Source: Candidatus Magasanikbacteria bacterium RIFCSPHIGHO2_02_FULL_48_18
GTDB taxonomy: Bacteria > Patescibacteriota > Patescibacteriia > Magasanikbacterales > UBA922
Length of the DNA: 64,000 bases
NCBI GenBank assembly: GCA_001784285.1
Contig: MFQC01000011.1
Coordinates: 3,640-67,639, forward strand
Direction: 5' to 3'
A program made the translations under genes and the position numbers. Position 1 is the stretch's first letter; each line of letters starts with the position of its first letter. This document shows, piece after piece, positions 1-48,107 of the stretch. Under the pieces are notes generated by a model. It was given only the letters and a program-made list of their open reading frames with translations. It had not been told where the DNA came from and searched no databases.

Positions 1-352
1 GGCGTGTGGGCGGCGACGCCGGTCGCCGCGTTGCACGAGTCGACCGTGCACAGGTTGCCGTCGTCGATGACGCCGCAATCCTTCTCCTCGACGACGCACT
101 GGCCGACGACGTTGCACGTCATCCCAGACGAACACACGATGTCCGTGTGGATGCAGTCGCCGTCCACGCACACGTCCGTCGTGCACGCGTCGTTGTCGTT
201 GCAGTCCTTGCCGTTGTTGCACTCGGCGGCCGGGGCGGTCGGCCCCGCGTCCGCCTGGGGGGTCGGGGGCACGACGTACGTCGGCCCAGCGTCGTTGGTG
301 TCCCACGTGATGTCTCCCCCCAGACACCCTGAAACGGAAAAGGAGGCGAAGA
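1..352 (-). CDS. Lipoprotein with Cys-rich repeats; N-terminus present (ATG at 352), C-terminus runs off the window start
   Basis: Minus-strand translation MKSNLMIVAAIFASFSVSGC (signal peptide + lipobox) followed by repeated C-x-D-x-N-x-C-T-x-D-x-C...G-C units resembling Myxococcus-type disulfide repeats. AAGGAGAA SD 6 nt upstream. High GC. Not in ORF track because no in-window stop. Confidence 0.55.
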
Positions 353-854
353 TGGCGGCGACGATCATCAGATTGCTCTTCATCGGAATTCTCCTTGGCC
401 CATCGTGGGCCGCGCTAGTGCGGCCCGTTCCCGGGCGCTGTTTGAATCAGTGACAGCGCCGCAGTGGCGCCAGGCTTGAGAATGAGAAAACGAACACTAC
501 GTATCCAGGAGGAAAATGGAATCGTTGTCATGCTGACAAAACGGTATGACAACTATTTTATCCTCTTCTTGGATACGTAGTCTTTCGATAAAGACGTTCA
601 TCCAATTTGTAAAGAGCACGGCAACAATAACAAATATTATTGCCAGACAATGAAACCCTGTCCAGGGTTAGAAATCCGGTTAGGGTGCCATTGTCTTCTT
701 CGAAAGCTATCCACTTGACAAGTGATGACTACCAGGGTACCCTGATATTAGGTGATAATCCTGGTGCACGATTATATCTGCTCCGGATCTTGGAACTCCC
801 TTGGGGAGTTCTTTTGTTTTCCTTCAATTCTTGATATACTATTTTTGGATTGGA

Positions 855-929
855 GGGCGGAGAGCAGGTGGTCCTGCATCTGGGATTATCACCTCAGTTC
901 CAGGGGTTCGAATCCCCCTCCGTCCACCA
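855..929 (+). ncRNA. tRNA-like element (acceptor GGGCGGA/TCCGTCC, T-arm with GGTTCGAATCC, discriminator A, encoded CCA); anticodon arm non-canonical, so a tRNA pseudogene, att remnant or tmRNA-like 3' domain
   Basis: Hand-folded: 7-bp acceptor with one GU, D-arm GCAG/CTGC, T-loop TTCGAAT, terminal CCA at 927-929. Anticodon stem only pairs with an 8-nt loop. Confidence 0.3.
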
Positions 930-931
930 AA

Positions 932-960
932 AGTCCTGAATTTTCAGGACTTTTGTTTTT
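932..960 (+). terminator. Rho-independent terminator
   Basis: AGTCCTGA-ATTT-TCAGGACT hairpin followed by TTTTGTTTTT, directly after the tRNA-like CCA. Confidence 0.6.
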
Positions 961-1183
961 GTAAAGAACAGTTTCCCAAACAATAACTCACAGTATCTCC
1001 CTTCGAAAAAATATTTTTCAAAGAGACAATGCTGTCCCCTTGTCTCAATTCTTTCGAATGAAACAAGGGGGAGCCTCCTTTCCCGCGATCCGGTGGATAC
1101 CGGCGCAGGATCGTGACTTCCCCGACTGGGTCGGGGAACGCAGCGCGTGTCACAGTGCGGATGCGCTGCTTGGAAGGTACGAA

Positions 1184-2214
1184 CTACCACATGGGCAAGT
1201 TGGCCGCCCGCCACATGGCGGGCGGGATGTAGGTGTTGGCTGCCGCTGCTGCCGCAGCTTCAGCCGCCACCTTGGCCTTCTCCCACTGGTTCCTCTCCCC
1301 GTTTCGCACACCTTGTGCGATACCGCAGGAGATCGCCCCGATGCCAGCGCCGGTCAACGCACCAATCCACGCCCCCTCGTCGGCGTGGCCATCCGTGTGC
1401 TTGCCGGGCTCGTCGGCCTGTGGTTGCTCGAAGTGCCCGATGAGGGCCCCTGCGCCGGCACCTCCGGCAGTCGCGGCACCCATCCCGATGAACCACATGG
1501 CCCAATCGGGAAGGTCGTACTGCGGAGGCGGGGGGACGTTGCTCGCCAGGCTGTAGAGGTAGGGGTTGAGCTGGTGTTTGTCAATCTTCACTCGCTCACC
1601 CAACCCGTCCCGGAAGCGGCAGTCGGCGCCGGGCGTCTTGAGGCACATTGCGAGTGCATAATTCGGGTCCAGAACGGCCCGATTCATGCAGTCCTCACAA
1701 GCCTCGACCATGTTTTTGACCGCCTCGGAGTCGACCGTCGTCCCATCCAACGACCGGAGGGTGCCGATGACGGCCGTGCACTGGGCCGCGCAGCCCTGCC
1801 CTGCCGGCGTCGCGAGCCGCTTTTCGATCCTGGCCAGAGTGGCCTGGATCTCGTCGAGCTTCTGGTGCACCGGCCCCAGTTTGACGTCGAGCACGGGGCC
1901 GATCGCCCCGATGACGCCGTCGATGATCCTCTGGATCGACTCGTCGTTGATCCCGACCTCTTTGCAGGCGTTATATACGCGGACCTTCCGCTTCCGGCAG
2001 GCCGCGCTGTCATCGCAGCACTCCTCGCGAAGCTTCTTCAGATCCGCCTCGAGGGCCGCAGTCTGAGCCGCCGACGCGTTCGTCTTCGCCACCATCGCCC
2101 TGATGGTGGCATCCTGGTTCGCCACGGTCGCTTTGACGTTCTGCCCGAACGCCAGGGTGCCGCTGATTGTGAGGGCCAGCAGCACAAGCCCCATGATCGT
2201 CTGGCGAATCATTG
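1184..2214 (-). CDS. Secreted protein with signal peptide, coiled-coil/Cys-rich middle and C-terminal glycine-zipper region
   Basis: GAGGAGAAACGCA-ATG start at 2214. N-terminus MIRQTIMGLVLLALTISGTLAFG. C-terminus GMGAATAGGAGAGALIG / GALTGAGIGAIS motifs. GC-rich codon usage. Confidence 0.55.
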
Positions 2215-2274
2215 CGTTTCTCCTCGACCCTACCCGGGTCACGCGTTGTGAGCCCGGGCAGGGCTCATGGGTTG

Positions 2275-3783
2275 CTACTGGCAGTTGACGCCCGGCATGG
2301 CCGCCGGCTGGCTCGGGTCGATCGAGTGCAGGTTGTCCTGCGACGCGCACGTCGCCAGTTCCACGACGGGGGGCGGTGGGGGTGGGGGTTCCGGGTCACG
2401 CAGAATCAACCACGTAACAAAGACCCCCAACAACGTGCAGAACAGCAGGAACCCGATGGCCGTCGTCCACTGGAAGACCGTGGTCTCCCGCGTGACCGCC
2501 TTCACCCCGTTGAGTGGTGCGTTCACTGTGTTGTTGGCAACCAGCGGCACGCCGCCGGCGCCGACCGCACCCGCACCCCCCGGCAGGGCATTGGCGAAGT
2601 TCGCCAACGCCTGCATGTCGGCCAGTCGCTGGGCCATCGTCGGCTCTGGCGGAGCCACCGGGACGAGACCCTGCAGTTGCTGTACCAGGTCGACCGCGTC
2701 TCCAGCGGTGGGAGCGGCCGGGACCAGACCGTGCAGGGTTGTCACGATCTTTGCCGCCTCGTCGGGGTCTGCCGCCTTGGCCTGCGGCAGGGACTTGAGG
2801 AGCGCGTCGACGAGCGTCGCCGCGCCGTCTCGCTGGTCCTTCGCCATATCCTTTGCGAGCTGCCCCGGGTCCGTGACCTTCGGCAGTACGCCGAGGACGG
2901 CCGTGAGCCGGTCGGCAGCGGCCTTGTCTGCCGCGGCGCCGAGCGTCACGGCGACGCCACCGGTCTCCCGGATCTGCGCCGACGGCGCCTCGGCCTTCGG
3001 AAGCGCCGCAAGGACGGCGTCCAGGCGAGCCTGGGCCGCCTTGTCCGCAGCTCCCCCGAGCTTCGTCGTCATGTCGCCCATCGCGTTGAGCTGGTCCATC
3101 GGGTCGACAGCTTTCGCCATCATCCCCTTGAACATGTCTGCCGCTTCCTTGTAGACCTTTGCCAGGTCGGATTGCGGATTTGCCGCCGCGATCGCCGCGG
3201 GGAGCCCGTTCAGCCTGTCGCCGATCGTTGTCAGCGCTGTGAGGATCTGCGTCGCGGGCACCCCGGCGGTGACGGCGCTCTTCAGCGCCTCCGGGAGTGC
3301 CGTGATCGCCGCCTGGAGGGCGGCGAAGTTTTCTCTTGTCGCCGTTCCCGCCGTGATCAGCGGGAGGAGGACCTTGACAAGGTCCACGATGTCTCGCAGG
3401 TTCATGGTGTCTCCTCCGCCGTCGGGCGGTCTTGTTGTGTCAGTTCTCGTTCTTGTCCGCGGATCGGCCGGCGGCTGGTCAGGGTCCCCGCGCACGAGTT
3501 CAATCGTGCCGGAGGTCGCCTCCCCGGCCGCATCCGTGATCCGGACGCGGACAGGGTTGCGGTGGTCATTCTGGAGGTTCCCCTTGGGAACCACGATGTC
3601 CACCCTTTCGGGCGGACCCGCACTCCAGAACCAACCTTCCCTGCCCAAGGCCGCGGCCTTGGGCACGTCCTTGACCTCACCCCTAATTTCAATTCTCACT
3701 CTCGTCGGCTCTGCCGCGCCGAAGTCACCCTCGACGCGAACCGCCCGATCTCCGATCTTCGTAATGGTTGTGATGGTAGCCAT
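2275..3783 (-). CDS. Repeat-containing protein with beta-rich N-terminal domain, L-x-x-LP-x-A type repeats, C-terminal TM helix and poly-Pro tail
   Basis: Strong GAGGAGG SD 6 nt before ATG at 3783 (MATITTITK...). A second GGAGGAG-ATG occurs in frame at about 3420. Single hydrophobic helix TTAIGFLLFCTLLGVFVTWLIL near the C-terminus. Confidence 0.55.
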   Translation of the reverse strand: MATITTITKIGDRAVRVEGDFGAAEPTRVRIEIRGEVKDVPKAAALGREGWFWSAGPPERVDIVVPKGNLQNDHRNPVRVRITDAAGEATSGTIELVRGDPDQPPADPRTRTRTDTTRPPDGGGDTMNLRDIVDLVKVLLPLITAGTATRENFAALQAAITALPEALKSAVTAGVPATQILTALTTIGDRLNGLPAAIAAANPQSDLAKVYKEAADMFKGMMAKAVDPMDQLNAMGDMTTKLGGAADKAAQARLDAVLAALPKAEAPSAQIRETGGVAVTLGAAADKAAADRLTAVLGVLPKVTDPGQLAKDMAKDQRDGAATLVDALLKSLPQAKAADPDEAAKIVTTLHGLVPAAPTAGDAVDLVQQLQGLVPVAPPEPTMAQRLADMQALANFANALPGGAGAVGAGGVPLVANNTVNAPLNGVKAVTRETTVFQWTTAIGFLLFCTLLGVFVTWLILRDPEPPPPPPPVVELATCASQDNLHSIDPSQPAAMPGVNCQ

Positions 3784-3905
3784 GTGTAGCCTCCTCATTG
3801 CGAAGTCGGTGCGGGTATGCGCCGACGAAAGTGTTGGACCGTACAGGATCCGACCACCACCTCGACCATCGAGGTGAGGTAGTGAGGACCCGGACGGGCC
3901 GTTGT

Positions 3906-3975
3906 ATCTCCCGTTCCCCCTCCTCACCTCCCCCTTTGGGGGAGGGGAAGGGAGGGGGAACGGGAGATCTTTTTC
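3906..3975 (+). repeat. 63-nt GC-rich imperfect palindrome plus T-run (terminator-like) at the GC-content boundary
   Basis: atctcccgttccccctcctcacctccccc / gggggaggggaagggagggggaacgggagat arms around tttggg, then CTTTTT. GC composition switches immediately downstream. Confidence 0.5.
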
Positions 3976-4177
3976 TCTTGTTTTGGCCTTTATTTGTAAT
4001 GAACGGCTGAAAACACCAAAATTAGGCATGTTCAGCACAGAAAAAATCCTGGGAATCCCGGACCTTTTCTTTTCTGAACAGTGCAATAATACTTTAAATA
4101 ATCGCTCTATACAGCCAAATTTTTCTGCTTTTCTCCTTTTTTAGGAGAACTAACTATCATAGCACATTTTGGAGAAC

Positions 4178-4206
4178 TTGTCAAGACACCCCACCCATGA
4201 TATTCT
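4178..4206 (+). promoter_or_regulatory. Sigma70-like promoter TTGTCA-17-TATTCT for the toxin-antitoxin array
   Basis: Hexamers with 17-nt spacer, about 20 nt upstream of HEPN start 4226. Confidence 0.4.
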
Positions 4207-4225
4207 ACCCATATTCTACAATCGT

Positions 4226-4675
4226 ATGACTGATAAAGAAAAAATGAAATATGTCTTCTACTGGTTTGAAGAAGCCAAAATTTCTTTGGATGTCGCAAAA
4301 TCACTGTATAAAAGCAAAAAATACGCAGAAACACTCTTTTTTGGCCATTTAACCTTGGAAAAAATACTCAAAAGTATTGTCGTATTTCAAACAAATAAAC
4401 ACGCACCGTTTACCCACGACTTGGTATCTCTTGCAGAAAAAGGAAGAATGCCTCTTTTAACCGATGCAATTGAAACGTTACAAAAAGTAAATGGCTTTTA
4501 TCTTTCCGGCAGATATGATCAACACAAAATGGATTTTCGGAAAAAATGCACTCCCGAATTTACCAAAAAATACTTTGATGAAATAAAAAATACCTACATA
4601 TGGCTCGAAAAAGAAGCACAAACGCTCTTCCGGTCTTTGTCACCGCAAAAGCCCATGGATACATCCAAACACTAA
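4226..4675 (+). CDS. HEPN domain protein (toxin-like partner of MNT)
   Basis: MTDKEKMKYVFYWFEEAKISLDVAKSL...GRYDQHK motif. Classic HEPN N-terminus. Paired with downstream MNT. Confidence 0.7.
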   Translation: MTDKEKMKYVFYWFEEAKISLDVAKSLYKSKKYAETLFFGHLTLEKILKSIVVFQTNKHAPFTHDLVSLAEKGRMPLLTDAIETLQKVNGFYLSGRYDQHKMDFRKKCTPEFTKKYFDEIKNTYIWLEKEAQTLFRSLSPQKPMDTSKH

Positions 4676-4935
4676 AATCCTCTCGGATACCGATCAATCG
4701 CGCATACATATTCGGTTCGTGGGCAAAACAGAAGGCAGATGATGACAGTGACATTGATCTTGCTATTTTGTCGTCTTCTTTTTCGGATTGGGAAAAACAA
4801 AATAACGCGTTGGCAAAAGCCATGCGCATGGATTTTGCCGGCATTGAACCGCACGGATTTCACCCAAAGGATTTCACACCCGGTGAAAATCTGTTAGTGG
4901 ATGAAATTCTCAAATATGGAATACGGATTGTGTGA
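4600..4935 (+). CDS. Minimal nucleotidyltransferase (MNT, antitoxin-like); start uncertain, 76-nt overlap with HEPN if ATG at 4600
   Basis: IFGSWAKQKADDDSDIDLAIL = GS...DxD nucleotidyltransferase signature. Ends GIRIV*. Confidence 0.7.
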   Translation: MARKRSTNALPVFVTAKAHGYIQTLKSSRIPINRAYIFGSWAKQKADDDSDIDLAILSSSFSDWEKQNNALAKAMRMDFAGIEPHGFHPKDFTPGENLLVDEILKYGIRIV

Positions 4936-4938
4936 TAT

Positions 4939-5220
4939 ATGAAAAAAGAAAACATTATCAAACTTATTGCCCCCATTCTCACGCGCCATCATGTGACGAA
5001 TGCCGCGTTGTTTGGTTCGTTCGCGCGAGGAGAAGAAACGGAAACCAGCGATGTGGATATTCTTATTGACCCACCGCCACACATGTCACTTCTTGATATG
5101 GCACGTCTCAAACATGAACTTGAAGACACCCTTCACAAAAAAGTGGATCTTGTCCCGGAGAGATCACTCTACCCAGATCTCAAACCATACATTGAAAAAG
5201 ATAAACGTCCAATTTTTTAG
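4939..5220 (+). CDS. Minimal nucleotidyltransferase (MntA-like antitoxin)
   Basis: LFGSFARGEETETSDVDILID motif. Confidence 0.8.
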   Translation: MKKENIIKLIAPILTRHHVTNAALFGSFARGEETETSDVDILIDPPPHMSLLDMARLKHELEDTLHKKVDLVPERSLYPDLKPYIEKDKRPIF

Positions 5221-5223
5221 TCT

Positions 5224-5604
5224 ATGGCAACAGATGAACAGCGAGAACCATTGGCATATTTACATGACATACAGGAAAGTATTGAACACATAGAGGCATA
5301 CACACAACCACACACCTTTGAATCGTTTGTAAGAGACCAACAAATACAAGACGCTGTGGTTCGACGAATAGAAATAATCGGCGAGGCAGTAAAACAATTA
5401 CCGCTTGCCATCCGGCATACCTACCCCGAAATCCCATGGCGGGATGTGGCAGGTATGCGTGATATTTTAATTCACGAATATTATCGCGTTGATTTACCGA
5501 CTGCGTGGGAAGTGGCCATTCGTGATTTGCCAAAATTGAAACGGCAAATACAAAACCTCATTAGGCATATTACAATGAATGATAATAAAAATTCTAAGAA
5601 GTAG
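5224..5604 (+). CDS. HepT/DUF86-type HEPN toxin
   Basis: R-DILIHEY (Rx4HxY HEPN motif). 4-nt gap after the MNT gene. Confidence 0.8.
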   Translation: MATDEQREPLAYLHDIQESIEHIEAYTQPHTFESFVRDQQIQDAVVRRIEIIGEAVKQLPLAIRHTYPEIPWRDVAGMRDILIHEYYRVDLPTAWEVAIRDLPKLKRQIQNLIRHITMNDNKNSKK

Positions 5605-5606
5605 GT

Positions 5607-5639
5607 AAAATTCTCAAATACGAAATACGGATTGTGTAA
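5607..5639 (+). pseudogene. 33-nt remnant of an MNT gene 3' end (..KILKYEIRIV*) directly after the hepT stop
   Basis: Near-identical to 4900-4935 (3' end of MNT at 4600-4935). Confidence 0.5.
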
Positions 5640-5657
5640 CTCATTACCATAAAATAA

Positions 5658-6065
5658 ATGGCTAACGAACATATTATCCAATTTTGGAAAAAATCCGCGG
5701 ACAAAAATCACGCGGCCGCCAAGTCATTATTTCGCCTCGGGCATTATGATATGTGCCTCTTCTGTTGCCATCTTGCGATTGAAAAATATCTGAAGGCATA
5801 TTACATAGCACAAACTGGCAAGCTTCCCCCGTACATCCACGATCTCAACCGAATCGCCGAATCACTAAGTCTGCCGCTCACAGATGAACACATAACAGAC
5901 CTCGACACAATGACAAAATTTAACGTCCAAGGGAGATACGACGACGTAAAATTGCGCTTCTACAAAACCGCGACAAAACCATACACCAAACACTATCTTG
6001 AAAAAACCAACCAATTCATTCTATGGCTAAAAAAAGAATCTCAAAAAAAACAGAAAAAAAAATAG
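5658..6065 (+). CDS. HEPN domain protein
   Basis: HAAAKSLFRLGHYDMCLFCCHLAIEKYLKAY...QGRYDD, HEPN-like. Upstream of MNT. Confidence 0.7.
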   Translation: MANEHIIQFWKKSADKNHAAAKSLFRLGHYDMCLFCCHLAIEKYLKAYYIAQTGKLPPYIHDLNRIAESLSLPLTDEHITDLDTMTKFNVQGRYDDVKLRFYKTATKPYTKHYLEKTNQFILWLKKESQKKQKKK

Positions 6066-6349
6066 ATGGTTTTATATCCTCATTAAAAAAAGATGGGACG
6101 CCGATTACGAGTCTCTATCTTTTTGGCTCCCATGCCAAAGGAACCGCGCATGAATGGAGCGACATTGATTTGGCTGTTATTTCTCCGGCATTTGAAACAC
6201 GTATCAAAGATCCGCTGAATTATTTATGGGGGAAAAGGATGGAACTCAAAGAATTTGCCATCGAACCTGTTGGCTTTTCTCCAAAAGATTTTAAAGAAGG
6301 CGGCATGCTGATAAACGAAATTAAGCGGCATGGAATACGGATACTGTAA
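6023..6349 (+). CDS. Minimal nucleotidyltransferase
   Basis: LYLFGSHAKGTAHEWSDIDLAV motif. Ends GIRIL*. Confidence 0.8.
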   Translation: MAKKRISKKTEKKIDGFISSLKKDGTPITSLYLFGSHAKGTAHEWSDIDLAVISPAFETRIKDPLNYLWGKRMELKEFAIEPVGFSPKDFKEGGMLINEIKRHGIRIL

Positions 6350-6414
6350 AACCAAAGAGAAAATAAAAACAAACGCTTCATACATACCATTTTCTCACCC
6401 TAATATATACCTCT

Positions 6415-6636
6415 ATGAGCAACACTACCCCTACCAAACAAAAAAATCCTGACCTAACCAGAGAAATTCAGCTTATGAAAAGCCTGCTCATCAGTCTTGT
6501 CGGTCGAGACAACGAGGGAAACTACCAGCCTGAATTTGCCAAAAAAATACTTCTTGCTTCGGAAGAAAAGCCGACCAAAACATTTAAAGATCCCGCTTCA
6601 TTTTTGCGCGAACTTAAAAATGTTTCAATTTATTGA
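6415..6636 (+). CDS. Hypothetical small protein (73 aa) in cassette-like position
   Basis: ORF only. No SD. Followed by another MNT 3' remnant. Confidence 0.3.
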   Translation: MSNTTPTKQKNPDLTREIQLMKSLLISLVGRDNEGNYQPEFAKKILLASEEKPTKTFKDPASFLRELKNVSIY

Positions 6637-6868: not shown

Positions 6869-9800
6869 TTACTCTCCAATCTTTGCCGCATCTCCTGCGG
6901 TTGCAGCACTCCCACTCGTCTCCTCCACTTTTACCCCATTTTTAAATTCAACCGGATTATTGGGATCGTCCAAATAGTACCGATTGATGGTATCCCCATC
7001 AACATCGTCTATTGCCGGCCGCAATTTGCCGCCTTCTTCAATAAGCTGAACTTTGCCTTCAATGGTTGCATTTCCTCCGGCAATATCAATTTTTAAATTT
7101 CCTCCCGCAATGTTTGGATTAAAATCCACTGGCATCACCACTTCGAATGGATCTTTCCCTTCCCCTCGAAAGAGAGAAAATCGTTTGATACCAGACACTC
7201 TTGTGGGAAGTTCGACTAACGGTTTGTCCGGTGTCGGTGCCCCTTCGGTTCCGGCAGCTGCTTCTGCCGCAGGAGATGGAATAGGTCCGCCGGATTCGCC
7301 CGCCGGTTCAACTCGAGGCTCTGCTGTTTCCTGGGGTCCAGCCGCAACTTTTGGTTTGGACAAATCCAATCCCGATCGATCTACTCCGGCGGCGCGAGTT
7401 TGGATATCCTCCCCACCTGATTGTGCGGCAGACCCCACGGCGCGTCCAATTGCGTCTCCACGGAACGAAGAAGCATCTGGTCTTGCGCCACTTGTTCGAG
7501 CGGCATCTTCTATCCGTTCCACTTCTGTTTTGACCGCATCAAAGTATGAACCCAGCACATCACGACGAAAGGTTCCCGCTATTTCATTATAACCGGAAAG
7601 ACGTGTCTTCAAAAACTGTTCTGTATATTGTTGCAAGGTTTGTCGTTGCGCCGGAGAAAACTCAAGTATATCTTCCAAATCAATATCGCCTCGAGCGGCC
7701 GCGTCAAGCGATGTCATAAGCAAGCTCACGCCTTTTTGCAATTTTTTGATTTCTGTAACTTCGGCTGCGGACGGCATTTCACTATAATCTCTTCCAATAC
7801 CGCCTTGATAGTCTCCGACACTTCCGCCGATACCTGCTGAACCATACGCTCGCGATTCAGCCGCAGAACCCACACCTCGAGCCACAGCAGAAGACGCTCC
7901 TCCAGTGATCGATTGAAATGGATTCTCGGCATAATGTGTTACCTGCCCGGCGGCATCGGTTACATTGAGCGTGCCATCTCGAAGTAATTCTACTACGCTG
8001 ACATTATTGCCAATTTCATACGTTATACCGTCGAGCGAAATCACTTTGACATTTTTGCCAAGGCCATCCGACGTTTCAATAATGCGTATTTTCCCCGGGC
8101 CGGAAAGCCCTGCTTTGGCTGCGTCCATTGACTGTGATACGTCGGGTCGTCCATGAAGTTCGGCCTTTGTCATAGGTCGTCCATAGCGTACTTCCAAATT
8201 TCTGTCTCCGCCAACTTGGTTGTGATGGAATGTGAGTCTACCTTTTTCATCAAGAGCCGGAAGATAGTGCTGATCGACACCATCTTTCCAATAAACGCCC
8301 TTTAAATAGCGTCCGTCCCGAGTCATAAATCCGGTACGCAATGAAACGCGGTGGGCTTCTCTGCCAATGTGCGTATCCAAATCCACTTTTGCAACATTGG
8401 GATCATACCCAATCATGCTATAAAATTTGGCCTTTTCTTCTCCGGTTAAGGTATCGTCCAAATATCGCATAATTGCAATATACCGGCCTTCCGGGCCGCC
8501 ACCTTTTGGCAACTGCCCATGGTCAAACATTTCTTGCAGAACCTCCGGCTTTTGCAAACTCGGCAATTCATGAGAAATACCTTGCAGGTCTTCTTTTACG
8601 CCACTTTCCAAATTCATGGCATCCCAATCGACCTCAGGCGCTTCCGGAGGAATATCCGCAAAATCTGCCGGCTGTATGTCGGCGGCCTGTTGCCAGCCGG
8701 CAAGACGCGCCAACTCTTGTCTGGTGATGTTAATTTCTTCTTGCAAACCCCCCACAGTCTGTTCGGCTTGAAGACTTTTTCCCATGAGCTCAGCGTGTGC
8801 CGGACTATCCGGAGACACTGCCGCCATTTGATTTTCAATTTCCACATGATGCACATGCGCGTCTGCCAATTGTTGTTCCAATGCCTCCACTTTTGTGGTG
8901 CCATCCATAATCTTTTGGATGTCTTCTGATTTTTTTGCCAAATCACTGGTTGATAATTGAAAGGCTTCGGTTGGGCGACCTTGCATCATGCTTTGCGCGT
9001 ATGCTTTTGCTTCCAAAAATTTTTGGACGTAGCTACCAACCGCAATACCGGCAACGACAGACCCCAGACGTTTTGCCCAACGAAATCCTTTTTCTTTACC
9101 AATTTTTCTTAACGAAATATCAAGAGAGGCATTTTCTTGTTCTATATAGGCCGAGGTATATTTGGCGACATCTAAAGCTGTCGCATCTGGTGATCCTCCC
9201 GCGGCCTCCGGGGTGCCGGACGTGCCGCCTGCCATGTTTTGTACTAAAACCTCCTGAAGAAGGACGTCCCGTTTTTCGTACAAATCCTGATAGACCTCGT
9301 CTTTATTTGGATCTTTATGATCCACCTGCAATTTTGCACGGCGGACACTTAATAAATCGTTCAATGTTTCAAGCCGCGTTGCGGGTGTGTCCCCAAGCTC
9401 ATCAATCATGATATCTTTCCCAGCAAAACCACGACGCAGTATTCCTCGAATTCCGCCTTTCTTTTCTAATTTCGCACACTTTTTCTGGTATTTCTTCGTC
9501 ATGTCGGCTTTTTCTTTACCATATTGAGCCGGTTCCCATTCTTGCGCGGTAGCGCGTGCATGAAGAACTGCCATATCCTGATTGAATTTTGCGTTCAACG
9601 CCGTGGCTCGATATTCTACGATGTCCTTTTCGTCGGTAAACACTCTCCCTTGTTTTCCAAAACGACGCTGGGAATACTCTTGTACTCCGTCCAAAAGACC
9701 TCGCGAACCAAAACCACCTCCAAGCCCGGCCATTGCTGTCCGGGTTGCAATAAATCCACCTGCCTGAAGAACCGATTCAAACCATAAAGGAGCTCCCACC

Positions 9801-12800
9801 AGAGCAGTAGATAATACGGTTCGGACACTGACAACTTTCCCGGCGCCTTTCATAAATCGGCTGGTTTGTTGCCACTGCTTATCCCAAAAGCCGCCCTTAT
9901 TTTTTTCGGTATAGGACTCAAAAAAATTGGACAAATTCATATCACCCAGTTTTCTCCAAGCTGATTGAACTTTGGCAAATGCTTTATTTTCCAATCGTTC
10001 CGAAATGGCCGTATCGAGCTGCCGTGATTCTTCTTTCATCCACGCTTGAATTTCTTGCACCTCAAACTCGGCTTTTTCAAGATAGGCTTTTCTGGCCGCG
10101 TCATAATCAACTTTTGCCTGCTCAAACGCAGGTTCCGCTTTCTTCCCACCAATGAGGCCACGACGTTTTTTGTATAAAAGTGCTAATGTTGCACGTGCGT
10201 CTTCCACATCTAATTCCAAACCGACAAGTTCTTTCTTCTCGTCGGACACTTCCCCCGCCTCCACCTCTCCGCTTGGCGGTTCCCTCTCGTCTTTCGCTGC
10301 CGGCGCGTATGCCTCGGCCGCGGCTTTTTGAAACGCATCGTTCACTTTTCTCTCTAGCTCAGAATCGTCCCACAGCTTTTGCGCCGCGACTGCCGGATCC
10401 GGATTTTGCTTCAATTCTACCGTAAGCCATTTGGGATTATCTTTCAACCAATCACCAATTTCTTTATAGAGTACATCCATGGCTATTGAACTTTTTAAAA
10501 TATTGGAAGCATAGCCCTCCCTGCCAACAAGGGAAGGAAACCCGTCTTGAACACGTTTCCGAAATTCATCAATAACCTGTTCCCAATACTCACGTACTTT
10601 TTCTCTGGATGCGGGGCGAAAACCCATTTTTTTGGATTGTCCAATGGCGGCCAACAACTCAACCTCTATTTCCCCGCCGGTATTAACCATACCATGGGCT
10701 ATGTCAATCATTTTTTTTCTCCCCGCCATTTCTTGCGTTGGCAAATGTGTACCAGATCTATCGGCGCGTGGAATACCTGCTGTTGCAACAGTTCGCTTAA
10801 ACAGAATATCTTCATAATAAGCAACGTCCCCTCGGGGAAACATGGCGCTTGGCCCTCCGGAAAACGAACGTTCTATAACGCCCCCCAAGGCTCCATGCAA
10901 TAAATCATCCACTTGTGTCCTTGCTTCGCGTTCAGAATAGCCAAGCGCAAGAAAATTGGCATACAACCGTTCTTTTGTCGCCTCCACTATTCTCTCTTTC
11001 CACTCGTCAAATGTTCGAACGTGCTCTTCATATGCTTGTATAGAGCCATCAATTTTTGCGGAAAGATCATCCGGAATAATTTTATCCTTATGAAGTTCGA
11101 CCATCACAAGTTTCGCGACCTCCTCGGCTGGCGTGTCAAGTTTACATCTGCCACCGTCTATTAATTTTTTGATTATGTTGTCAGTATTGTATGGATCAAC
11201 CTGTCTTACAACAGCTGTATGTAACTCATCTGAGATTGGCTCCGGTTCTATTGCTTTCCTTATTAAAAATAAAACCACATCTCTTGTTCCATAAATCAAA
11301 TCGGCAAGATCATATTGCTCTTTTATTTTTTTTACCCCCTCTTTGGCACGAGCTTCCGGTTTCATTTTTTTCAGCTCTTTTTCCTCCATCTTTGGATTCA
11401 CGGAATAAAAAATTAACTCAAGGGCGTGTAGGCGGCGATCATTGTTATCTATTTGGCCCACAGCTTCTTTTTCCACTGCTTCTTTAAACGCTGTCCAGTA
11501 TGCTTGCAATTCTGCATTATCAACATCAACGTCTTTCATTTTCTTCTGCCACGCATCTTCCGCGTCTCTCGCCGGATCACGCTCACCAATTTCTTGTGCA
11601 AAACCAAGATCACGCATAATGCCTTTTGCGGCTTCTTTGGGATTATTTCTTACGTCTTCATGAAGAAATCCCAGGTTCTCTGATAAATTTTCAAGCGCAG
11701 GCTGGACACGGTCTTGGACAAATTGGTCAATGTCATCTTCCTTTACATGCCCGCCATCTTTGAGAAGCTGATGTATATGGTCGCGGACATCCTCTTGCAC
11801 CAACTGATCCCACACATGCCTTGAAAACTTCCCAAATTCTTCATCCTCTTTTTCCATTGTCTTTATGGTCTCATAAAAATCAAAATTTTTTGGATCTATT
11901 TTTCTATCAGTCCACAGCCGATCAAACGCCGCATCAAATGCGCCGCCATCGTCAAAACGGGAATCTATACCATGAATTTCCGGATATGTTTCTTCAAGAA
12001 AAGCCCGAAAACGTTGTTTATATTCTTTCTTATACGCTTCGGGGTCTTTTTTCTCTTCCACAATCACCGGCTCGGAATTTTCATCTGCGCGCGCCAACAA
12101 CAATTCCGCCAGCTGTTCCGGAGTGGCTTTTTTGGGGGCATGACGCAAGACATCTTCCACATCTAAATAATGAAAGATGCGATAAAAAAGTTTTTCCCGT
12201 TTCAGAGGGTCGCTCTCCAATCTTGATATCACCCCCAGTGCGGCATGCCAACCCATCTGTGCGGCATGGCGTAATACCGCGAGATCACGTTTTCCTTTAT
12301 TAAAAATCCCAGATAGTTTACTGACCTCCACTGCTCCTATCTTGTCTATACGATCTAAAAATTTAGCTGTTGCTTCACGATTTGCGTCATGCAACGCGCC
12401 ATACGTCATCGATCCGGCTTCCGCGGCAACCGGAGTTGGCTCAACATCAACTGGCCGTTTATCAAGACCTCCGCCTCTTGTTGCACTAAGGGCATCTGAA
12501 ACTTCCAACAAATCTGGTTCGGATTCGACAGGTCGTGCTGGTGGTTGGTCTGGTTCAACGGCAGCCGGAGCCGATTCTGTGCCGCCAGGAACTTCATCAT
12601 CAGCTACTTCTGCTTCCGGTGGTTCATCGTCAGCAAACTCCGCCGTCACCGGTTCTTCGTCATCTACCAACTCGGATTCTGCAATTGGTCCTGTATCGAA
12701 ATATCGCCCAGCTTTTTTATGAGCACCCAAAAATTGTGCCACTCGTTTTGTGGCTTCCAATTCTGGATTCCCTAAAACCAATTCCTCTCCACGTTGATCT

Positions 12801-14665
12801 GATTCCAACTGAGCCCTCAACGCCCTCAAAATATCCAAGGCCTCGGACGAAAGTGGAATAGATTTATCGTCAGGAGTAAGTATTTTAACTGCCGCTTCAA
12901 CTACTTGATCAACGTATTCCTGTGTTTTTTGTTCTTGCCATTTTTCTGTTTCTGTTCTTTCTGTAGGGACAACAGCCGGTACTGCCGACGGTGCTCCTTT
13001 CTCTGTATCTTTAATGTCAGGTATAAGTAGTGGTCCAGATGGTTCATCGTCCAATGAAGAAAGCGTAGGCCCAGGTTCGAAAGGAACTCGTGGTTCTGGT
13101 CCTGATGCCGGCGCCTCCCCCGGTTCATCCTTATGCACTTTTTTCCGAGAAATACCTTTCCCTAACGAACCACCCAATGTTGTTTCTCCCAAAATACCAA
13201 GCCCGCGCGGTCTTTCTGGTAAAGATTCAGCGGCCGGCGTTTCTACGGGTGGTACAGAAGTTTCTTTTTTTACATCGTCTGTGGCAAGAACAGCGCCAGA
13301 CTGTTCACTTTCTCCTGGCACCGACGGCGGCGTGAGCTGTTCCAACCCTTCAACATGATCAGCCGATCCATCGTCTTCTACAATCGTCGCTTCTGCAATC
13401 TTTTCTTCTGCTTCTTCCGGCTGCAATGCAGTGGCTCTCTTTTCTTCCTCCGCCGCAAGCTCACTAAGAAAATCGGGTTTATTTTCTTCATCCGCACCAA
13501 AAGGCAAAGGATGAGTTTCCGGCGCAACGCTTCGCTTGGTCACTTTGGACCATGAAGGAGAGTCGGCTCTTGCGATATGAATTTCCTGCGGATAGGTTGT
13601 CCCATCTTTTCGTGGCAAGTGAACCCGAAATGTTATCGCTCCATCCGCGCGTTTTCCCACAACTTCGCCGGGAACGAGTTTTTTTGGATACTGATATTGA
13701 ATTTGTTCGCCCACCGTAAAGGTGTGCGTACCGAGGGAAACCGTTTCCCCCTCTTTGGCAGTCGCGATTACTCCTGTTTCCGGAGAAGTCGCCGCTTTCT
13801 CTTTTCCTGTTTCACCACGAAATAATGTTCTTCTTAATTGTTCTCTTTTTGGCACTGCCCAATCCGGCATATGCGCCATTGCTTGAACTCCGGGCGGCCC
13901 AAGACGTTTCCCTTCTGAAATAATTCTTCCCCTTTCGTCATCCGTAAGGTCGGCCTCGTCTTTCGCAAGAAGATCGGCAATGGAGGATTCTGGTGACACG
14001 GGAGCTTCTTCTGCTAAAGGAACAACGGACTGAGAAATTGTGCCTTCTTCAGGCACAACCGTATCTTCATGCGTAATGCCTAATTCGTCCTGAACGACGT
14101 CAAGAATATTATTCACGGTGTCAGAAACGTCCCCTGTTTGGAGAAGAACTTCCTCATCTAAGACGCGCATACGAGAAACAAATGCCCTTTGTATGCTCGA
14201 ACGTTGCGCGGCAGGGTAACCATTGAGACAATCGTCCAATCCCCCTAATACGTCTACCCAAAAATCTGCCACTCTCCCACGGACATCACGGTCGGTGACA
14301 CCATTTTTATCAAAAACGGTTTCCAAAAACTGCAAAAATTCCATGGTGTTGTTTCGGCGCAATTCGTGTTCTAGTCTGGCGCGGAACTCTTCATAATCAG
14401 TCTCAAGCGACTCCAATTCTATTGCAATCTGCTCTGCTTCTCCGTCTTTCAATTTTGTTCCGGCATTATCCAAAAAAGACCGAAGCCTCTTATCGAGCCC
14501 CGCCAATTCATTTCCAAAATCCTCACTTCCCTCTTCCAATGTCTTGAGGTGGTCAAATAACGTTGCCATTTCAGCCCGCATGCGATCGGCTCTTTTCACG
14601 ATATTTTCGGCTTCGGGCGTTTGCGATCCTTCTTTTTTTGGTTTTGTTTTGTCTTCTTCAGCCAT
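6869..14665 (-). CDS. Giant protein (2598 aa), function unknown. Acidic coiled-coil N-terminal half, two internal hydrophobic segments, Gly-rich C-terminal region. Weak YD-repeat-like motifs (TRDGRYL, DEKGRLTF)
   Basis: Single uninterrupted ORF. ATG at 14665 is 3 nt after the upstream ORF stop (coupled). Opposite strand carries only short ORFs. Confidence 0.85.
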   Translation of the reverse strand: MAEEDKTKPKKEGSQTPEAENIVKRADRMRAEMATLFDHLKTLEEGSEDFGNELAGLDKRLRSFLDNAGTKLKDGEAEQIAIELESLETDYEEFRARLEHELRRNNTMEFLQFLETVFDKNGVTDRDVRGRVADFWVDVLGGLDDCLNGYPAAQRSSIQRAFVSRMRVLDEEVLLQTGDVSDTVNNILDVVQDELGITHEDTVVPEEGTISQSVVPLAEEAPVSPESSIADLLAKDEADLTDDERGRIISEGKRLGPPGVQAMAHMPDWAVPKREQLRRTLFRGETGKEKAATSPETGVIATAKEGETVSLGTHTFTVGEQIQYQYPKKLVPGEVVGKRADGAITFRVHLPRKDGTTYPQEIHIARADSPSWSKVTKRSVAPETHPLPFGADEENKPDFLSELAAEEEKRATALQPEEAEEKIAEATIVEDDGSADHVEGLEQLTPPSVPGESEQSGAVLATDDVKKETSVPPVETPAAESLPERPRGLGILGETTLGGSLGKGISRKKVHKDEPGEAPASGPEPRVPFEPGPTLSSLDDEPSGPLLIPDIKDTEKGAPSAVPAVVPTERTETEKWQEQKTQEYVDQVVEAAVKILTPDDKSIPLSSEALDILRALRAQLESDQRGEELVLGNPELEATKRVAQFLGAHKKAGRYFDTGPIAESELVDDEEPVTAEFADDEPPEAEVADDEVPGGTESAPAAVEPDQPPARPVESEPDLLEVSDALSATRGGGLDKRPVDVEPTPVAAEAGSMTYGALHDANREATAKFLDRIDKIGAVEVSKLSGIFNKGKRDLAVLRHAAQMGWHAALGVISRLESDPLKREKLFYRIFHYLDVEDVLRHAPKKATPEQLAELLLARADENSEPVIVEEKKDPEAYKKEYKQRFRAFLEETYPEIHGIDSRFDDGGAFDAAFDRLWTDRKIDPKNFDFYETIKTMEKEDEEFGKFSRHVWDQLVQEDVRDHIHQLLKDGGHVKEDDIDQFVQDRVQPALENLSENLGFLHEDVRNNPKEAAKGIMRDLGFAQEIGERDPARDAEDAWQKKMKDVDVDNAELQAYWTAFKEAVEKEAVGQIDNNDRRLHALELIFYSVNPKMEEKELKKMKPEARAKEGVKKIKEQYDLADLIYGTRDVVLFLIRKAIEPEPISDELHTAVVRQVDPYNTDNIIKKLIDGGRCKLDTPAEEVAKLVMVELHKDKIIPDDLSAKIDGSIQAYEEHVRTFDEWKERIVEATKERLYANFLALGYSEREARTQVDDLLHGALGGVIERSFSGGPSAMFPRGDVAYYEDILFKRTVATAGIPRADRSGTHLPTQEMAGRKKMIDIAHGMVNTGGEIEVELLAAIGQSKKMGFRPASREKVREYWEQVIDEFRKRVQDGFPSLVGREGYASNILKSSIAMDVLYKEIGDWLKDNPKWLTVELKQNPDPAVAAQKLWDDSELERKVNDAFQKAAAEAYAPAAKDEREPPSGEVEAGEVSDEKKELVGLELDVEDARATLALLYKKRRGLIGGKKAEPAFEQAKVDYDAARKAYLEKAEFEVQEIQAWMKEESRQLDTAISERLENKAFAKVQSAWRKLGDMNLSNFFESYTEKNKGGFWDKQWQQTSRFMKGAGKVVSVRTVLSTALVGAPLWFESVLQAGGFIATRTAMAGLGGGFGSRGLLDGVQEYSQRRFGKQGRVFTDEKDIVEYRATALNAKFNQDMAVLHARATAQEWEPAQYGKEKADMTKKYQKKCAKLEKKGGIRGILRRGFAGKDIMIDELGDTPATRLETLNDLLSVRRAKLQVDHKDPNKDEVYQDLYEKRDVLLQEVLVQNMAGGTSGTPEAAGGSPDATALDVAKYTSAYIEQENASLDISLRKIGKEKGFRWAKRLGSVVAGIAVGSYVQKFLEAKAYAQSMMQGRPTEAFQLSTSDLAKKSEDIQKIMDGTTKVEALEQQLADAHVHHVEIENQMAAVSPDSPAHAELMGKSLQAEQTVGGLQEEINITRQELARLAGWQQAADIQPADFADIPPEAPEVDWDAMNLESGVKEDLQGISHELPSLQKPEVLQEMFDHGQLPKGGGPEGRYIAIMRYLDDTLTGEEKAKFYSMIGYDPNVAKVDLDTHIGREAHRVSLRTGFMTRDGRYLKGVYWKDGVDQHYLPALDEKGRLTFHHNQVGGDRNLEVRYGRPMTKAELHGRPDVSQSMDAAKAGLSGPGKIRIIETSDGLGKNVKVISLDGITYEIGNNVSVVELLRDGTLNVTDAAGQVTHYAENPFQSITGGASSAVARGVGSAAESRAYGSAGIGGSVGDYQGGIGRDYSEMPSAAEVTEIKKLQKGVSLLMTSLDAAARGDIDLEDILEFSPAQRQTLQQYTEQFLKTRLSGYNEIAGTFRRDVLGSYFDAVKTEVERIEDAARTSGARPDASSFRGDAIGRAVGSAAQSGGEDIQTRAAGVDRSGLDLSKPKVAAGPQETAEPRVEPAGESGGPIPSPAAEAAAGTEGAPTPDKPLVELPTRVSGIKRFSLFRGEGKDPFEVVMPVDFNPNIAGGNLKIDIAGGNATIEGKVQLIEEGGKLRPAIDDVDGDTINRYYLDDPNNPVEFKNGVKVEETSGSAATAGDAAKIGE

Positions 14666-19360: not shown

Positions 19361-19391
19361 AAAGAAAAAACGGCCTTTTCAAGCCGCTTTT
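19361..19391 (-). terminator. Weak intrinsic terminator after ssrA
   Basis: Short GC stem (GGCC..GCCG region) followed by U7 on the minus strand. Confidence 0.35.
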
Positions 19392-19393
19392 TG

Positions 19394-19789
19394 TGGAGAT
19401 GCCGGGAGTTGAACCCGGGTCTAAACGGGATACCACTGCAGTATACATGTGTAGCCACTTTCTTTGTTGCCCATTGACTCAAAAATGGCAAAACGGCAAT
19501 GGGTAAAGTCTGATAATCTTTCACATAGCGTCCTCAGACAAAAACGCTATCCTACGCTCAATGGGTTGGCACCGCGGTTTCCGTATTGAGTATCTGGAGC
19601 GCGATGGTCCAGGCAATTACGCGAGGACAGGAGCAAAAGCGGGAACGCTGAATGCGCGAGCAATCGCGTTCTTCACTCTGCTAACAACGTTTGCACGTAG
19701 TCGATTGTTCGAGTGATTTGCGAGGATCAAACGGCCTCGACATGAATGCGAATGATACCAGAATCCGTCTATCGAATCCTGTCATCCCC
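19394..19789 (-). ncRNA. ssrA: tmRNA (SsrA)
   Basis: Minus strand starts GGGGATGACAGGATTCGATAGACGG (canonical tmRNA 5' end) and ends ...CCGGGTTCAACTCCCGGCATCTCCA (T-arm + acceptor, CCA not encoded). Candidate tag frame ends ...APVLA-TAA. Adjacent to smpB. Confidence 0.8.
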
Positions 19790-22087: not shown

Positions 22088-22161
22088 GGACCGGTAGTTC
22101 AACTGGTTAGAGCACTGCCCTGTCACGGCAGAAGTTGCGGGTTCGAGTCCCGTCCGGTCCG
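22088..22161 (+). tRNA. tRNA-Asp (GTC)
   Basis: Cloverleaf: acceptor GGACCGG/CCGGTCC, anticodon loop CTGTCAC, T-loop TTCGAGT. CCA not encoded. Confidence 0.85.
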
Positions 22162-22180
22162 CTGAGTATTCTTTTTCATA

Positions 22181-47803: not shown

Positions 47804-48107
47804 TTTCTTTTTCTCTCTTTTTCTTTTTGTTTTTTGAGGAATCAAGGGACAGGCGCCGGTGCGATAAATCGCCCCGGCGCCCCGCGTTCCCGCCGGCCGA
47901 ACGCGGCCTAGTGGCGGTGAACGTGGACGTGCGTGTGCACGTTGCCCTGCGCGATGCGAATACGCATGGCACTCTCCTTGCAAAAACGCGGGGAATGCTC
48001 CCCGTGGCCGACCCAGCAGACAGAACGTTTAAGAAAACAACGTTCGCCGGGCCATTCAAATATTCTTCACAAAAAAAATTTGAACGGAACGACGAAACCA
48101 TACTGCT

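Follow-up and report, generated by a model that had tools for sequence, protein, structure and literature searches.

The first 3,975 nucleotides (nt) of the DNA considered here, a 64,000-nt stretch of contig MFQC01000011.1 from Candidatus Magasanikbacteria bacterium RIFCSPHIGHO2_02_FULL_48_18 (hereafter, the window), are far richer in guanine and cytosine (GC) than the DNA that follows them, and they end at a long palindrome. Is this block foreign DNA in the genome of a member of the Candidate Phyla Radiation (CPR), or is it an assembly chimera? A reading made from the letters alone (the sequence-only reading) had offered both answers. We find support for a foreign island and reject the chimera, since the block lies in the interior of long contigs and its junctions are reproduced at 98.8–100% identity in other assemblies. 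Window 1–3975 is probably the right end of a real mosaic island of horizontally acquired surface-protein DNA, which lies in a variable cell-envelope locus and makes use of native promoters.

The anomaly itself is as the sequence-only reading had described it, with a GC-rich first 3.9 kb or so unlike the rest in composition and codon usage. GC content is 66.3% at positions 1–460, 42.7% at 461–1050, 66.1% at 1051–3900, and 46.2% at 3976–64000. Intervals of 200 nt outside the block have a mean GC fraction of 0.462 (standard deviation 0.055), as compared to 0.60–0.74 for about 30 consecutive intervals inside it. GC content at third codon positions (GC3) is 0.82, 0.84, 0.89, and 0.89 for the four genes of the island, 0.30–0.52 for the genes that flank it, and 0.30–0.60 for the remaining open reading frames (ORFs) of the window, with the exception of one outlier at 0.65 that is described below. 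What needed correction was the supposed start of the block at window position 1. The GC-rich DNA runs 4.5 kb further to the left in the source genome, and in L004, a longer contig with the same locus (L004 position = 12213 minus window position), the full island occupies 8.45 kb (L004 8245–16700). Because the GC-rich DNA is internal in such long contigs, the window carries only the right-hand 4 kb of the island. Three sharp-edged blocks of 60–69% GC hold the four genes, all on the same strand, and are interrupted twice by AT-rich modules:

Window 1–383, minus strand: 5' part (127 codons) of the gene for a 472-amino-acid (aa) Cys-rich lipoprotein, cut by the window edge; GC3 0.89; complete gene at L004 11830–13248.
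Window 384–453, minus strand: GC-rich (64%) 5' untranslated stretch of the 472-aa lipoprotein gene, with the Shine–Dalgarno sequence AAGGAG; edge of block B.
Window 454–1062, no strand: AT-rich module 1, 609 nt, 43% GC, paralogous to module 2.
Window 1063–1183, minus strand: non-coding DNA of 64.5% GC downstream of the 342-aa gene; edge of block A.
Window 1184–2212, minus strand: ORF for a 342-aa orphan protein; GC3 0.84.
Window 2275–3783, minus strand: gene for a 502-aa orphan protein, from its translation; GC3 0.82.
Window 3784–3905, minus strand: 502-aa/342-aa operon, 5' untranslated region (UTR), GC-rich at 61.5%; Shine–Dalgarno sequence GAGGAGG.
Window 3906–3968, no strand: imperfect palindrome of 63 nt at the island edge, with 29-nt arms and a 5-nt spacer, from an inverted-repeat scan.
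L004 8245–11150: GC-rich block A.
L004 11760–13390: GC-rich block B.
L004 13391–14040: AT-rich module 2, between blocks B and C.
L004 14041–16700: GC-rich block C.

The non-coding ends of every block (60–140 nt) are likewise of 60–66% GC, and each GC/AT transition is completed within 50 nt. The GC-rich non-coding ends and the sharp edges indicate that the anomaly belongs to segments of DNA and not to codon choice alone. Thus, the locus shows the atypical composition and codon usage, bounded sharply, that are expected of an acquired genomic island, with GC3 of 0.82–0.89 as compared to 0.35–0.58 in backbone genes. The remainder of the window is a CPR-type genome, with a 16S rRNA gene that contains a 306-nt insertion and a normal transfer-messenger RNA (tmRNA) gene at window 19391–19789.

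Could the block nonetheless be a high-GC contig of another organism fused to a CPR contig at the palindrome? The composition step does coincide exactly with a strong hairpin, and an assembler did break there: two small MEGAHIT contigs from sample ERZ4903125 break or fold back at the palindrome, L016 ending 55 nt past the hairpin and L003 starting with 72 nt of the 502-aa gene (L003 1–72) folded back in reverse complement. These breaks show that the hairpin is troublesome for assemblers; they are not proof of a false join. Meanwhile, exact look-ups of the 502-aa and 342-aa proteins led to the JGI, ENA, and NCBI contigs L001–L008 and also L014, which are mutually 98.8–100% identical across the region, including both island/backbone junctions and the four internal GC/AT transitions. 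These junctions are reproduced in L001, L002, L004, L005, and L006 and the inner ones also in L007. The join is present in JGI 3300025308, ERZ27254842, ERZ978281, GCA_003485625.1, ERZ27254754, and ERZ28563660, that is, in several samples with different assemblers and naming schemes, so that at least five assemblies other than ERZ4903125 have it in identical form. The GC-rich block is internal to contigs of 85–199 kb with low-GC CPR-type DNA on either side, and it is twice interrupted by modules with an RNA-gene pair whose other occurrences are in CPR genomes. A chimera would demand the same six GC/AT misjoins in every assembly, and we therefore reject it as almost certainly wrong. The locus illustrates well that a sudden GC step at a hairpin calls for a check before it is dismissed as a mis-assembly.

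What does the island encode? Each of the three genes in the window (1–383, 1184–2212, and 2275–3783, all on the minus strand) has a strong, GGAG-type Shine–Dalgarno sequence, as had been noted. Two of the island genes encode Cys-rich lipoproteins: the 472-aa protein (12.9% Cys) and a 798-aa protein (14.0% Cys; L004 14162–16558). The 472-aa protein has a signal peptide that leads to the lipobox VSGC, followed by C-x-D-x-N-x-C-T-x-D-x-C repeats of the Dicty_CTDC type. The attribution of these repeats to a kind typical of myxobacterial secreted proteins held up, in that the window fragment matches the Pfam family Dicty_CTDC (PF00526), a relative of the "Myxococcus cysteine-rich repeat," with a score of 32.5 bits where the cutoff is 27 (E = 7e-8). 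PF00526 is also among the precomputed annotations of the full-length Cys-rich proteins and their relatives. As judged by eye from the translations, the lipobox cleavage site is MKSNLMIVAAIFASFSVSG followed by C in the window lipoprotein and ...IILALGFTFG followed by C in translations of L004. Arginine is nearly absent despite a GC content of 65–69%: the 472-aa lipoprotein has none, and K/(K+R) is 0.89 in the 798-aa lipoprotein. The gene for the latter contains internal DNA repeats at 75–84% identity (L004 15560–16340).

The other two proteins are orphans. The translation of the 342-aa protein begins with a signal peptide; its middle part contains Cys residues and a coiled coil, and its C-terminal region is hydrophobic and Gly-zipper-like. 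The 502-aa protein is tail-anchored: some 100 aa of beta-rich sequence at the N terminus precede a long helical part rich in Ala, and there is one transmembrane helix near the C terminus, with a Pro-rich tail that contains two Cys residues. An AlphaFold2 model of this protein made with no alignment had a predicted local distance difference test (pLDDT) score of 45 and was unusable. Gly, Ala, Arg, and Pro make up 36–39% of the two orphan proteins as compared to 25.6% of host proteins, and Phe, Tyr, Met, Ile, Asn, and Lys are depleted. This shift in amino-acid composition is of the kind that long evolution in a high-GC genome brings about.

Does the location of the island bear on its origin? In this genome the island is 2.3 kb from a gene of the Wzy_C family, and GC-rich, Cys-rich genes adjoin Wzy_C in three CPR genomes: this one, a Candidatus Azambacteria genome, and the genome represented by L039. 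Wzy_C, glycosyltransferases, and RmlD form a glycan-assembly cluster beside the locus in relatives. The Azambacteria genome, source of the Cys-rich relative P0013, has about 16 kb of genes of 58–70% GC (GC3 0.58–0.85), broken by gaps of 29–44% GC, which include four Cys-rich lipoproteins and Ala/Pro-rich secreted proteins and which lie between RelB/ParE-like genes and Wzy_C with a glycosyltransferase. Apart from the Cys-rich ones, proteins of the two CPR islands show no mutual similarity, and the Azambacteria Wzy_C is only marginally similar to the one described here. The L039 Wzy_C, an orthologue on a contig labelled Gammaproteobacteria, is 48% identical to it over the full length (E = 9e-134), and the order there is a Cys-rich gene of 69% GC, a tRNA-like gene (see below), Wzy_C, and glycan genes, in a backbone of 55–58% GC. 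Finally, the variant contig L016 (ERZ4903125) is 99.9% identical in the backbone and only about 75% identical on the island side of the palindrome (L016 1–60), at the end of the contig. Recurrence beside Wzy_C and divergence between strains point to a variable cell-envelope locus that has repeatedly held high-GC surface genes; a single recent accident does not fit.

We also compared the island proteins with the databases, and the results make the sequence-only reading's recent acquisition from a high-GC donor plausible but too simple. In a search of 5.8e9 proteins the 342-aa and 502-aa proteins found only themselves. An exhaustive phmmer search with the 502-aa protein against 1.84e9 representatives returned the protein itself and one weak match of 41 residues, and neither orphan has a match in Pfam, NCBIfam, PHROGs, PADLOC, or PDB. 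The Cys-rich lipoprotein matches no NCBIfam family. The 798-aa lipoprotein has more than 3,000 repeat-level relatives, all of at most 47% identity, and the best non-self match of the Cys-rich proteins (P0004) is 35% identical across 92% of the length. Named repeat-level relatives are mostly from Deltaproteobacteria, Myxococcota, or Polyangiaceae, and CPR genomes are represented too. Five relatives viewed in context all lie among non-CPR genes, such as those for Mfd, NusG, and sigma-54 activators, and four of the five, for which DNA was at hand (L011–L013 and L041), have surroundings of uniformly 59–75% GC. In composition, the Cys-rich family thus fits high-GC bacteria and is foreign to the present genome.

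What, then, is the AT-rich structured segment that had been seen to interrupt the block? It is present, but it is no structural curiosity: it contains a native CPR pair of RNA genes. Modules 1 and 2 are paralogous over about 400 nt, with a mean column identity of 76% in an alignment of about 480 columns of their central parts. Both modules carry the same series of elements, from the promoter that faces the downstream lipoprotein gene to the terminator of the tRNA-like gene, and their features are as follows:

Window 493–584, no strand: imperfect hairpin with 39-nt arms, an inverted repeat found in module 1 only.
Window 636–664, minus strand: sigma-70-like promoter TGGACA-17-AATAAT directed toward the lipoprotein gene, 10/12 matches (L004 11549–11577, plus strand).
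Window 715–743, plus strand: promoter of a small RNA, TTGACA-17-TACCCT, from sequence and alignment.
Window 750–820, plus strand: small RNA of about 70 nt, with a terminal hairpin at 792–812 and then a U-run.
Window 832–840, plus strand: TGaTATACT, an extended −10 element close to the tRNA-like gene and conserved across CPR units.
Window 855–929, plus strand: tRNA(Ala)-like RNA of 75 nt, from structure and covariation.
Window 928–965, plus strand: intrinsic terminator of the tRNA-like gene, a 12-bp stem and a T-run (L004 11285–11258, minus strand).
L004 13570–13880, minus strand: second RNA unit of the island.

In the tRNA-like RNA the acceptor stem is of 7 bp, with G2:C71, G3:U70, and A73; the CCA is encoded, and the T arm is canonical. 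In place of the D arm is a 5-bp hairpin with a UGGU loop, and the "anticodon" arm has an 8-nt loop, AUUAUCAC. G2:C71, G3:U70, and A73 are identity elements for alanyl-tRNA synthetase (AlaRS), so the RNA carries the alanine identity set and is a candidate alanine-accepting RNA. The 5' end of the small RNA, GGUGAUAAUCC (751–761), is complementary to the loop and the 5' stem strand of the tRNA-like RNA; in the window unit the complement is perfect over 12 nt and lies 105 nt upstream.

The two-RNA unit recurs. A scan of one genome per species with a loose tRNA-like pattern gave 24 loci, about 15 of them labelled Patescibacteria, and a covariance model confirmed about 20 copies; a strict pattern found only the same organism in JGI metagenomes. 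Besides the island, the unit is present at L017, L018, L026, L027, L030, L032, L038, and L039, and the RNA pair occurs in about ten CPR genomes. In 11 long-type copies covariation supports the cloverleaf: 96.1% of alignment cells are paired, 12 of the 21 pairs show compensatory changes, and none of 500 shuffles was as good. G3:U70, G2:C71, and the discriminator A are invariant in all 11, with covariation at pairs 4:69 and 5:68. All 11 copies also have, at a fixed distance, a small-RNA 5' end that is perfectly complementary over 9–14 nt to the loop and 5' stem strand and that covaries with the loop. Over the 15 pairs formed between the two RNAs, 95.3% are paired, as compared to 27–55% for slid controls, and seven show compensatory (double) changes. 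The −35 sequence TTGACA and a (T)GATATAAT-type −10 of the small-RNA promoter are kept in 11 units from nine CPR genomes; in copy 2 (module 2) a promoter scan found TTGACC-18-TACACT at the same place as the extended −10 element. Also conserved are the start of the small RNA, GGUGAUAAnCC, and a GGUGGA in the leader of the tRNA-like RNA that is complementary to the 3' end UCCACC.

Known RNAs do not account for the pair. Instead of a 7-nt anticodon loop with U33 and a purine at position 37, the tRNA-like RNA of the unit has an 8-nt loop, NUUAUCAC, and ARAGORN called none of the copies confirmed by the covariance model a normal tRNA, the long-type copies included. In Rfam the RNA has only sub-threshold matches to Tymo_tRNA-like (24.5 and 33.7 bits) and tmRNA, and none to the tRNA model; the tmRNA match (RF00023) is of 16.6 bits against a gathering threshold of 47, for a 75-nt RNA that has no reading frame. 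The two-RNA unit as a whole matches no Rfam 15 family, and a literature search found no published description of the RNA pair or of the island; the pair, a tRNA(Ala)-like RNA with a complementary small RNA, is apparently undescribed. Two other identities were rejected: that of a tmRNA fragment used as an att site, since the real tmRNA gene is elsewhere (19391–19789) and different, and that of a decoder for GC-rich Ala codons, since its loop carries no anticodon for Ala.

Ordinary housekeeping genes of normal composition surround the RNA pair in most CPR genomes. The modules are thus native CPR DNA embedded in the island, which accounts for their composition and suggests them as the source of promoters for the foreign genes. 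The promoter at 636–664 sits in a stretch that is conserved between both modules. The pair is not universal in such islands, in that the tRNA-like model has no match in the Azambacteria island. A possible further role of the modules as recombination anchors is hinted at by what adjoins the tRNA-like gene on its 3' side: GC-rich DNA here and in L039, and cassette-like genes in L018. Many tRNA-like matches, moreover, lie near the start of their locus, which may reflect contig ends next to variable DNA.

Several observations on related sequences may be recorded here. A shorter relative of the tRNA-like RNA, of about 71 nt, keeps G3:U70, has no D stem, and has a 9–10-bp "anticodon" stem. It is found at L020 1578–1648 and 2312–2382, L029 1989–2059 and 2712–2782, and L034 3740–3810 and 5016–5086, and also in L024, L025, L033, L035, and L037. 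The short relatives are often in tandem, 0.7–1.3 kb apart, have TTGACA promoters downstream instead of terminators, and have no complementary small RNA upstream; extra copies have the loops UUGUCA or UUGCCA. In L018 (820–6600; contig JAHJKD010000014.1) three tandem paralogous proteins of about 550 aa with N-terminal Zn-ribbon motifs have a layout like that of a cassette array: the second and third genes (2964–4646 and 4887–6509) each end 17 nt before a convergent tRNA-like gene, and none was seen after the first (820–2505). The contig has a further tRNA-like copy (L032). In the island, a long imperfect palindrome (L004 13391–13566) of the widespread "tgtcattgcgag...cgcaatgaca" type is situated between the 472-aa gene and the second tRNA-like copy; such REP-like repeats translate as "RFARNDK" in spurious ORFs. 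An ordinary tRNA-Asp gene in the window (22088–22162, plus strand) does not encode CCA, whereas both tRNA-like genes of the island do.

What is the palindrome at the edge of the island? As the sequence-only reading had it, a long palindrome with a T-run bounds the block on the right, at 3906–3968, exactly where GC content falls within 50 nt. A 101-nt stretch over it has a folding energy of −65 kcal/mol (z = −5.7). On the plus strand the T-rich run follows the palindrome as in a terminator; on the minus strand the palindrome is inside the 5' UTR of the 502-aa/342-aa operon. The latter placement follows from a promoter in the flank:

Window 4156–4184, minus strand: sigma-70 promoter, near-consensus TTGACA-17-TGnTATGAT, 11/12 matches, TG present (L004 8029–8057, plus strand).

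This promoter, which is in host-type AT-rich DNA and points into the island, is likely to be that of the 502-aa/342-aa operon. We looked for a second copy of the palindrome, as had been proposed, and found none in the window or in the 21-kb locus L004, nor is there a counterpart at the far edge of the island. We therefore reject a repeated att-like site, and we read the palindrome as a boundary or insulator hairpin and a recombination breakpoint rather than an att or attC site.

How could such an island have arisen? In the account that we favor, the GC-rich blocks would have been acquired horizontally after long evolution in a high-GC genome, the donor being Myxococcota-like bacteria or a GC-richer CPR relative. 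Given that there is no integrase, att repeat, or phage gene, we infer that entry would have been by homologous exchange between conserved flanks, as in O-antigen and capsule loci. The genes would be transcribed from native sigma-70-type promoters, one in the flank upstream of the palindrome and one in each AT module facing the downstream lipoprotein gene. Their products would be surface proteins that plausibly serve as adhesins in an episymbiotic way of life, with possible glycosylation via the neighboring Wzy_C-family enzyme. The palindrome would form a stable hairpin in the 5' UTR, would insulate the HEPN gene that lies beyond it from antisense read-through in the opposite direction, and would mark a recombination boundary. 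More speculatively, and we regard this as rather unlikely, the two-RNA unit could be a landing pad or recombination anchor, as well as a promoter donor, for capturing and expressing foreign high-GC surface-protein genes. The captured genes might stem from bacteria to which CPR cells attach; if so, the composition of the island would point to the host of the CPR cells.

Several results weigh against acquisition as we have described it. No donor was found: the two orphans have no homologue, and the Cys-rich proteins match through repeats alone, at 47% identity or less. The near-absence of arginine from both lipoproteins is atypical of proteins from high-GC genomes. No genome with an empty site was found, and a Wzy_C scan of GTDB species representatives gave no confirmed relative. 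The island has no integrase or transposase family (Pfam, NCBIfam, and PHROGs), its four proteins match no phage or defense family (PHROGs and PADLOC), and the edges of the blocks and of the island are free of repeats at least 9 nt long, of target duplications, and of partial copies of the tRNA-like 3' end. Also, the modules have diverged (to about 76% identity), and GC-rich, Cys-rich genes have the same position beside Wzy_C in a distant relative; both observations suggest a long residence, with which GC3 values that are almost un-ameliorated are not easily squared.

These last points are what lend some weight to the main rival, an unlikely one in our judgment, in which the locus is native and vertically inherited and was kept GC-rich by selection, or by GC-biased gene conversion among surface genes that are rich in repeats and recombine often, while the genome drifted toward AT. 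GC-rich, Cys-rich genes do occupy the same position by Wzy_C in L039 and Azambacteria, the diverged paralogous modules imply age, the internal repeats of the 798-aa gene could recombine, and two of the proteins have no outside homologues. But the GC-rich state reaches 60–140 nt into non-coding ends and then stops within 50 nt, the non-repetitive orphan genes are as GC-rich (GC3 0.82–0.84) as the repeat-rich ones, and the orphan proteins have the amino-acid composition of high-GC genomes. Furthermore, the L039 backbone is itself of 55–58% GC, so that the contrast there is small, and the spread of GC3 in the Azambacteria island (0.58–0.85) is that expected of acquisitions of different ages. Differing from our account in the donor only, and a more serious possibility though still one that we doubt, is an exchange within the CPR in which the whole island, RNA modules included, came from a GC-richer CPR relative, and not from Myxococcota, by homologous recombination. 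CPR-specific RNA genes inside the island, two orphan genes that fit a poorly sampled CPR gene pool, and a strain variant with an identical backbone that diverges at the island edge (in a contig that ends 55 nt on) are all consistent with such an exchange, as is L039, where a 55–58% GC backbone has the same arrangement of a 69% GC Cys-rich gene, tRNA-like gene, and Wzy_C. However, the AT modules, at 43% GC, resemble the recipient and not a donor of 57% GC, the GC3 values of 0.82–0.89 are above those of the L039 backbone (0.64–0.75), and only one such relative has been seen. Least probable of the three is an integrated mobile element (a prophage remnant, an integrative element, or a cassette array) that targets tRNA-like genes. 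GC-rich DNA 3' of each tRNA-like gene here and in L039, the tandem L018 paralogues that end 17 nt from convergent tRNA-like genes, and the many matches near a locus start (possibly contig ends at assembly breaks beside variable DNA) would fit. Yet the island encodes no member of an integrase, transposase, or phage family, and the block and island edges have neither a repeat of at least 9 nt nor a copy of the tRNA-like 3' end; scans of viral contigs with the tRNA-like pattern and two island proteins found nothing; and the RNA pair is mostly among housekeeping genes of normal composition. We consider this explanation very improbable.

The surroundings of the island are of host composition. On one side are HEPN/nucleotidyltransferase toxin–antitoxin genes of 35–43% GC, and beyond the far side are toxin–antitoxin pairs, Wzy_C, and a radical-SAM gene. 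Pairs of HEPN/nucleotidyltransferase (MNT) and HepT-like genes bracket the island in mirrored orientation (window 4169–6350, plus strand, and L004 16794–18812). The bracketing genes are protein-level paralogues that lie outside the island, and there are no inverted DNA repeats between them at the blastn level. Cleavage of tRNA 3' ends is reported for HEPN toxins of this class, and it may or may not be related to the presence of the tRNA-like RNAs. Just to the right of the toxin–antitoxin array is a 2,598-aa ORF of host composition with no recorded Pfam domain (window 6869–14665, minus strand). The GC3 outlier mentioned above is a second compositional anomaly: a gene for a 418-aa pyridoxal-phosphate-dependent PALP (cysteine-synthase-like) protein (window 46727–47983, minus strand; 60% GC, GC3 0.65, locally up to 68% GC), beside the 16S rRNA gene (44348–46150, minus strand). 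The 306-nt insertion in the 16S gene comes after about model position 455 (approximately 45330–45715) and contains a 103-codon ORF (45402–45713); there is no adjacent 23S gene.

CPR bacteria (Patescibacteria) presumably live attached to other cells; little is understood of the way in which they recognize these partners. Lipoproteins and membrane proteins of foreign composition beside envelope-glycan genes, in three CPR lineages, constitute a concrete candidate for an attachment apparatus, and the island is possibly a record of gene flow from partner organisms. The RNA pair would add a new RNA family to a radiation noted for its reduced translation machinery.

How does the locus compare with known systems? 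The island RNA resembles tRNA-Ala and the tRNA-like domain of tmRNA in its acceptor stem (G2:C71, G3:U70, A73), its canonical T arm (GGTTCGAnTCC), and a CCA end that is encoded or can be added, and it has the weak, sub-threshold tmRNA match. It differs from tRNA-Ala in its 8-nt loop (N-U-U-A-U-C-A-C), which lacks purine-37 geometry, and in the 5-bp hairpin with a UGGY tetraloop that replaces the D arm, and from tmRNA in having no tag reading frame or pseudoknots. The two RNAs together recall T-box leaders and antisense pairs, in that a leader-like RNA with a terminator hairpin pairs with the anticodon loop of a tRNA-shaped RNA and the pairing covaries between genomes. But the pairing extends over 9–14 nt of the loop and 5' stem strand, as compared to the 3–4-nt specifier of a T-box; the small RNA has no Stem I platform, T-box sequence, or Rfam T-box match; and the downstream gene is that of the tRNA-like RNA itself, which has its own promoter.

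The Cys-rich proteins are like the repeat-containing secreted proteins of Myxococcota in that their repeats score above the PF00526 threshold, they have lipoprotein signal peptides, and they have thousands of repeat-level relatives, the named ones mostly from Deltaproteobacteria, Myxococcota, or Polyangiaceae and those whose surrounding DNA was viewed in uniformly high-GC contexts. They are unlike them in being nearly free of arginine, in having a best match of only 35% identity over 92% of the length and no NCBIfam family, and in being encoded in CPR genomes (Magasanikbacteria, Azambacteria, and L039).

Finally, the island as a whole may be compared with O-antigen (rfb) and capsule loci, which have atypical GC content and are exchanged between conserved flanking genes. 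In those loci the deviation is usually toward low GC, whereas here it is high GC in a low-GC genome. Also, the cargo consists not of sugar-pathway enzymes but of proteins that are secreted or lipid-anchored, the island is a mosaic interleaved with native RNA-gene modules, and no alternative alleles or empty sites were retrieved. In common with those loci, the island has a sharp anomaly of composition and codon usage that is confined to a block of cell-surface genes, it lies at the edge of a glycan-assembly cluster and carries no mobility genes, and a strain with an identical backbone diverges from the edge of the block onward (as far as the L016 contig extends, 55 nt).

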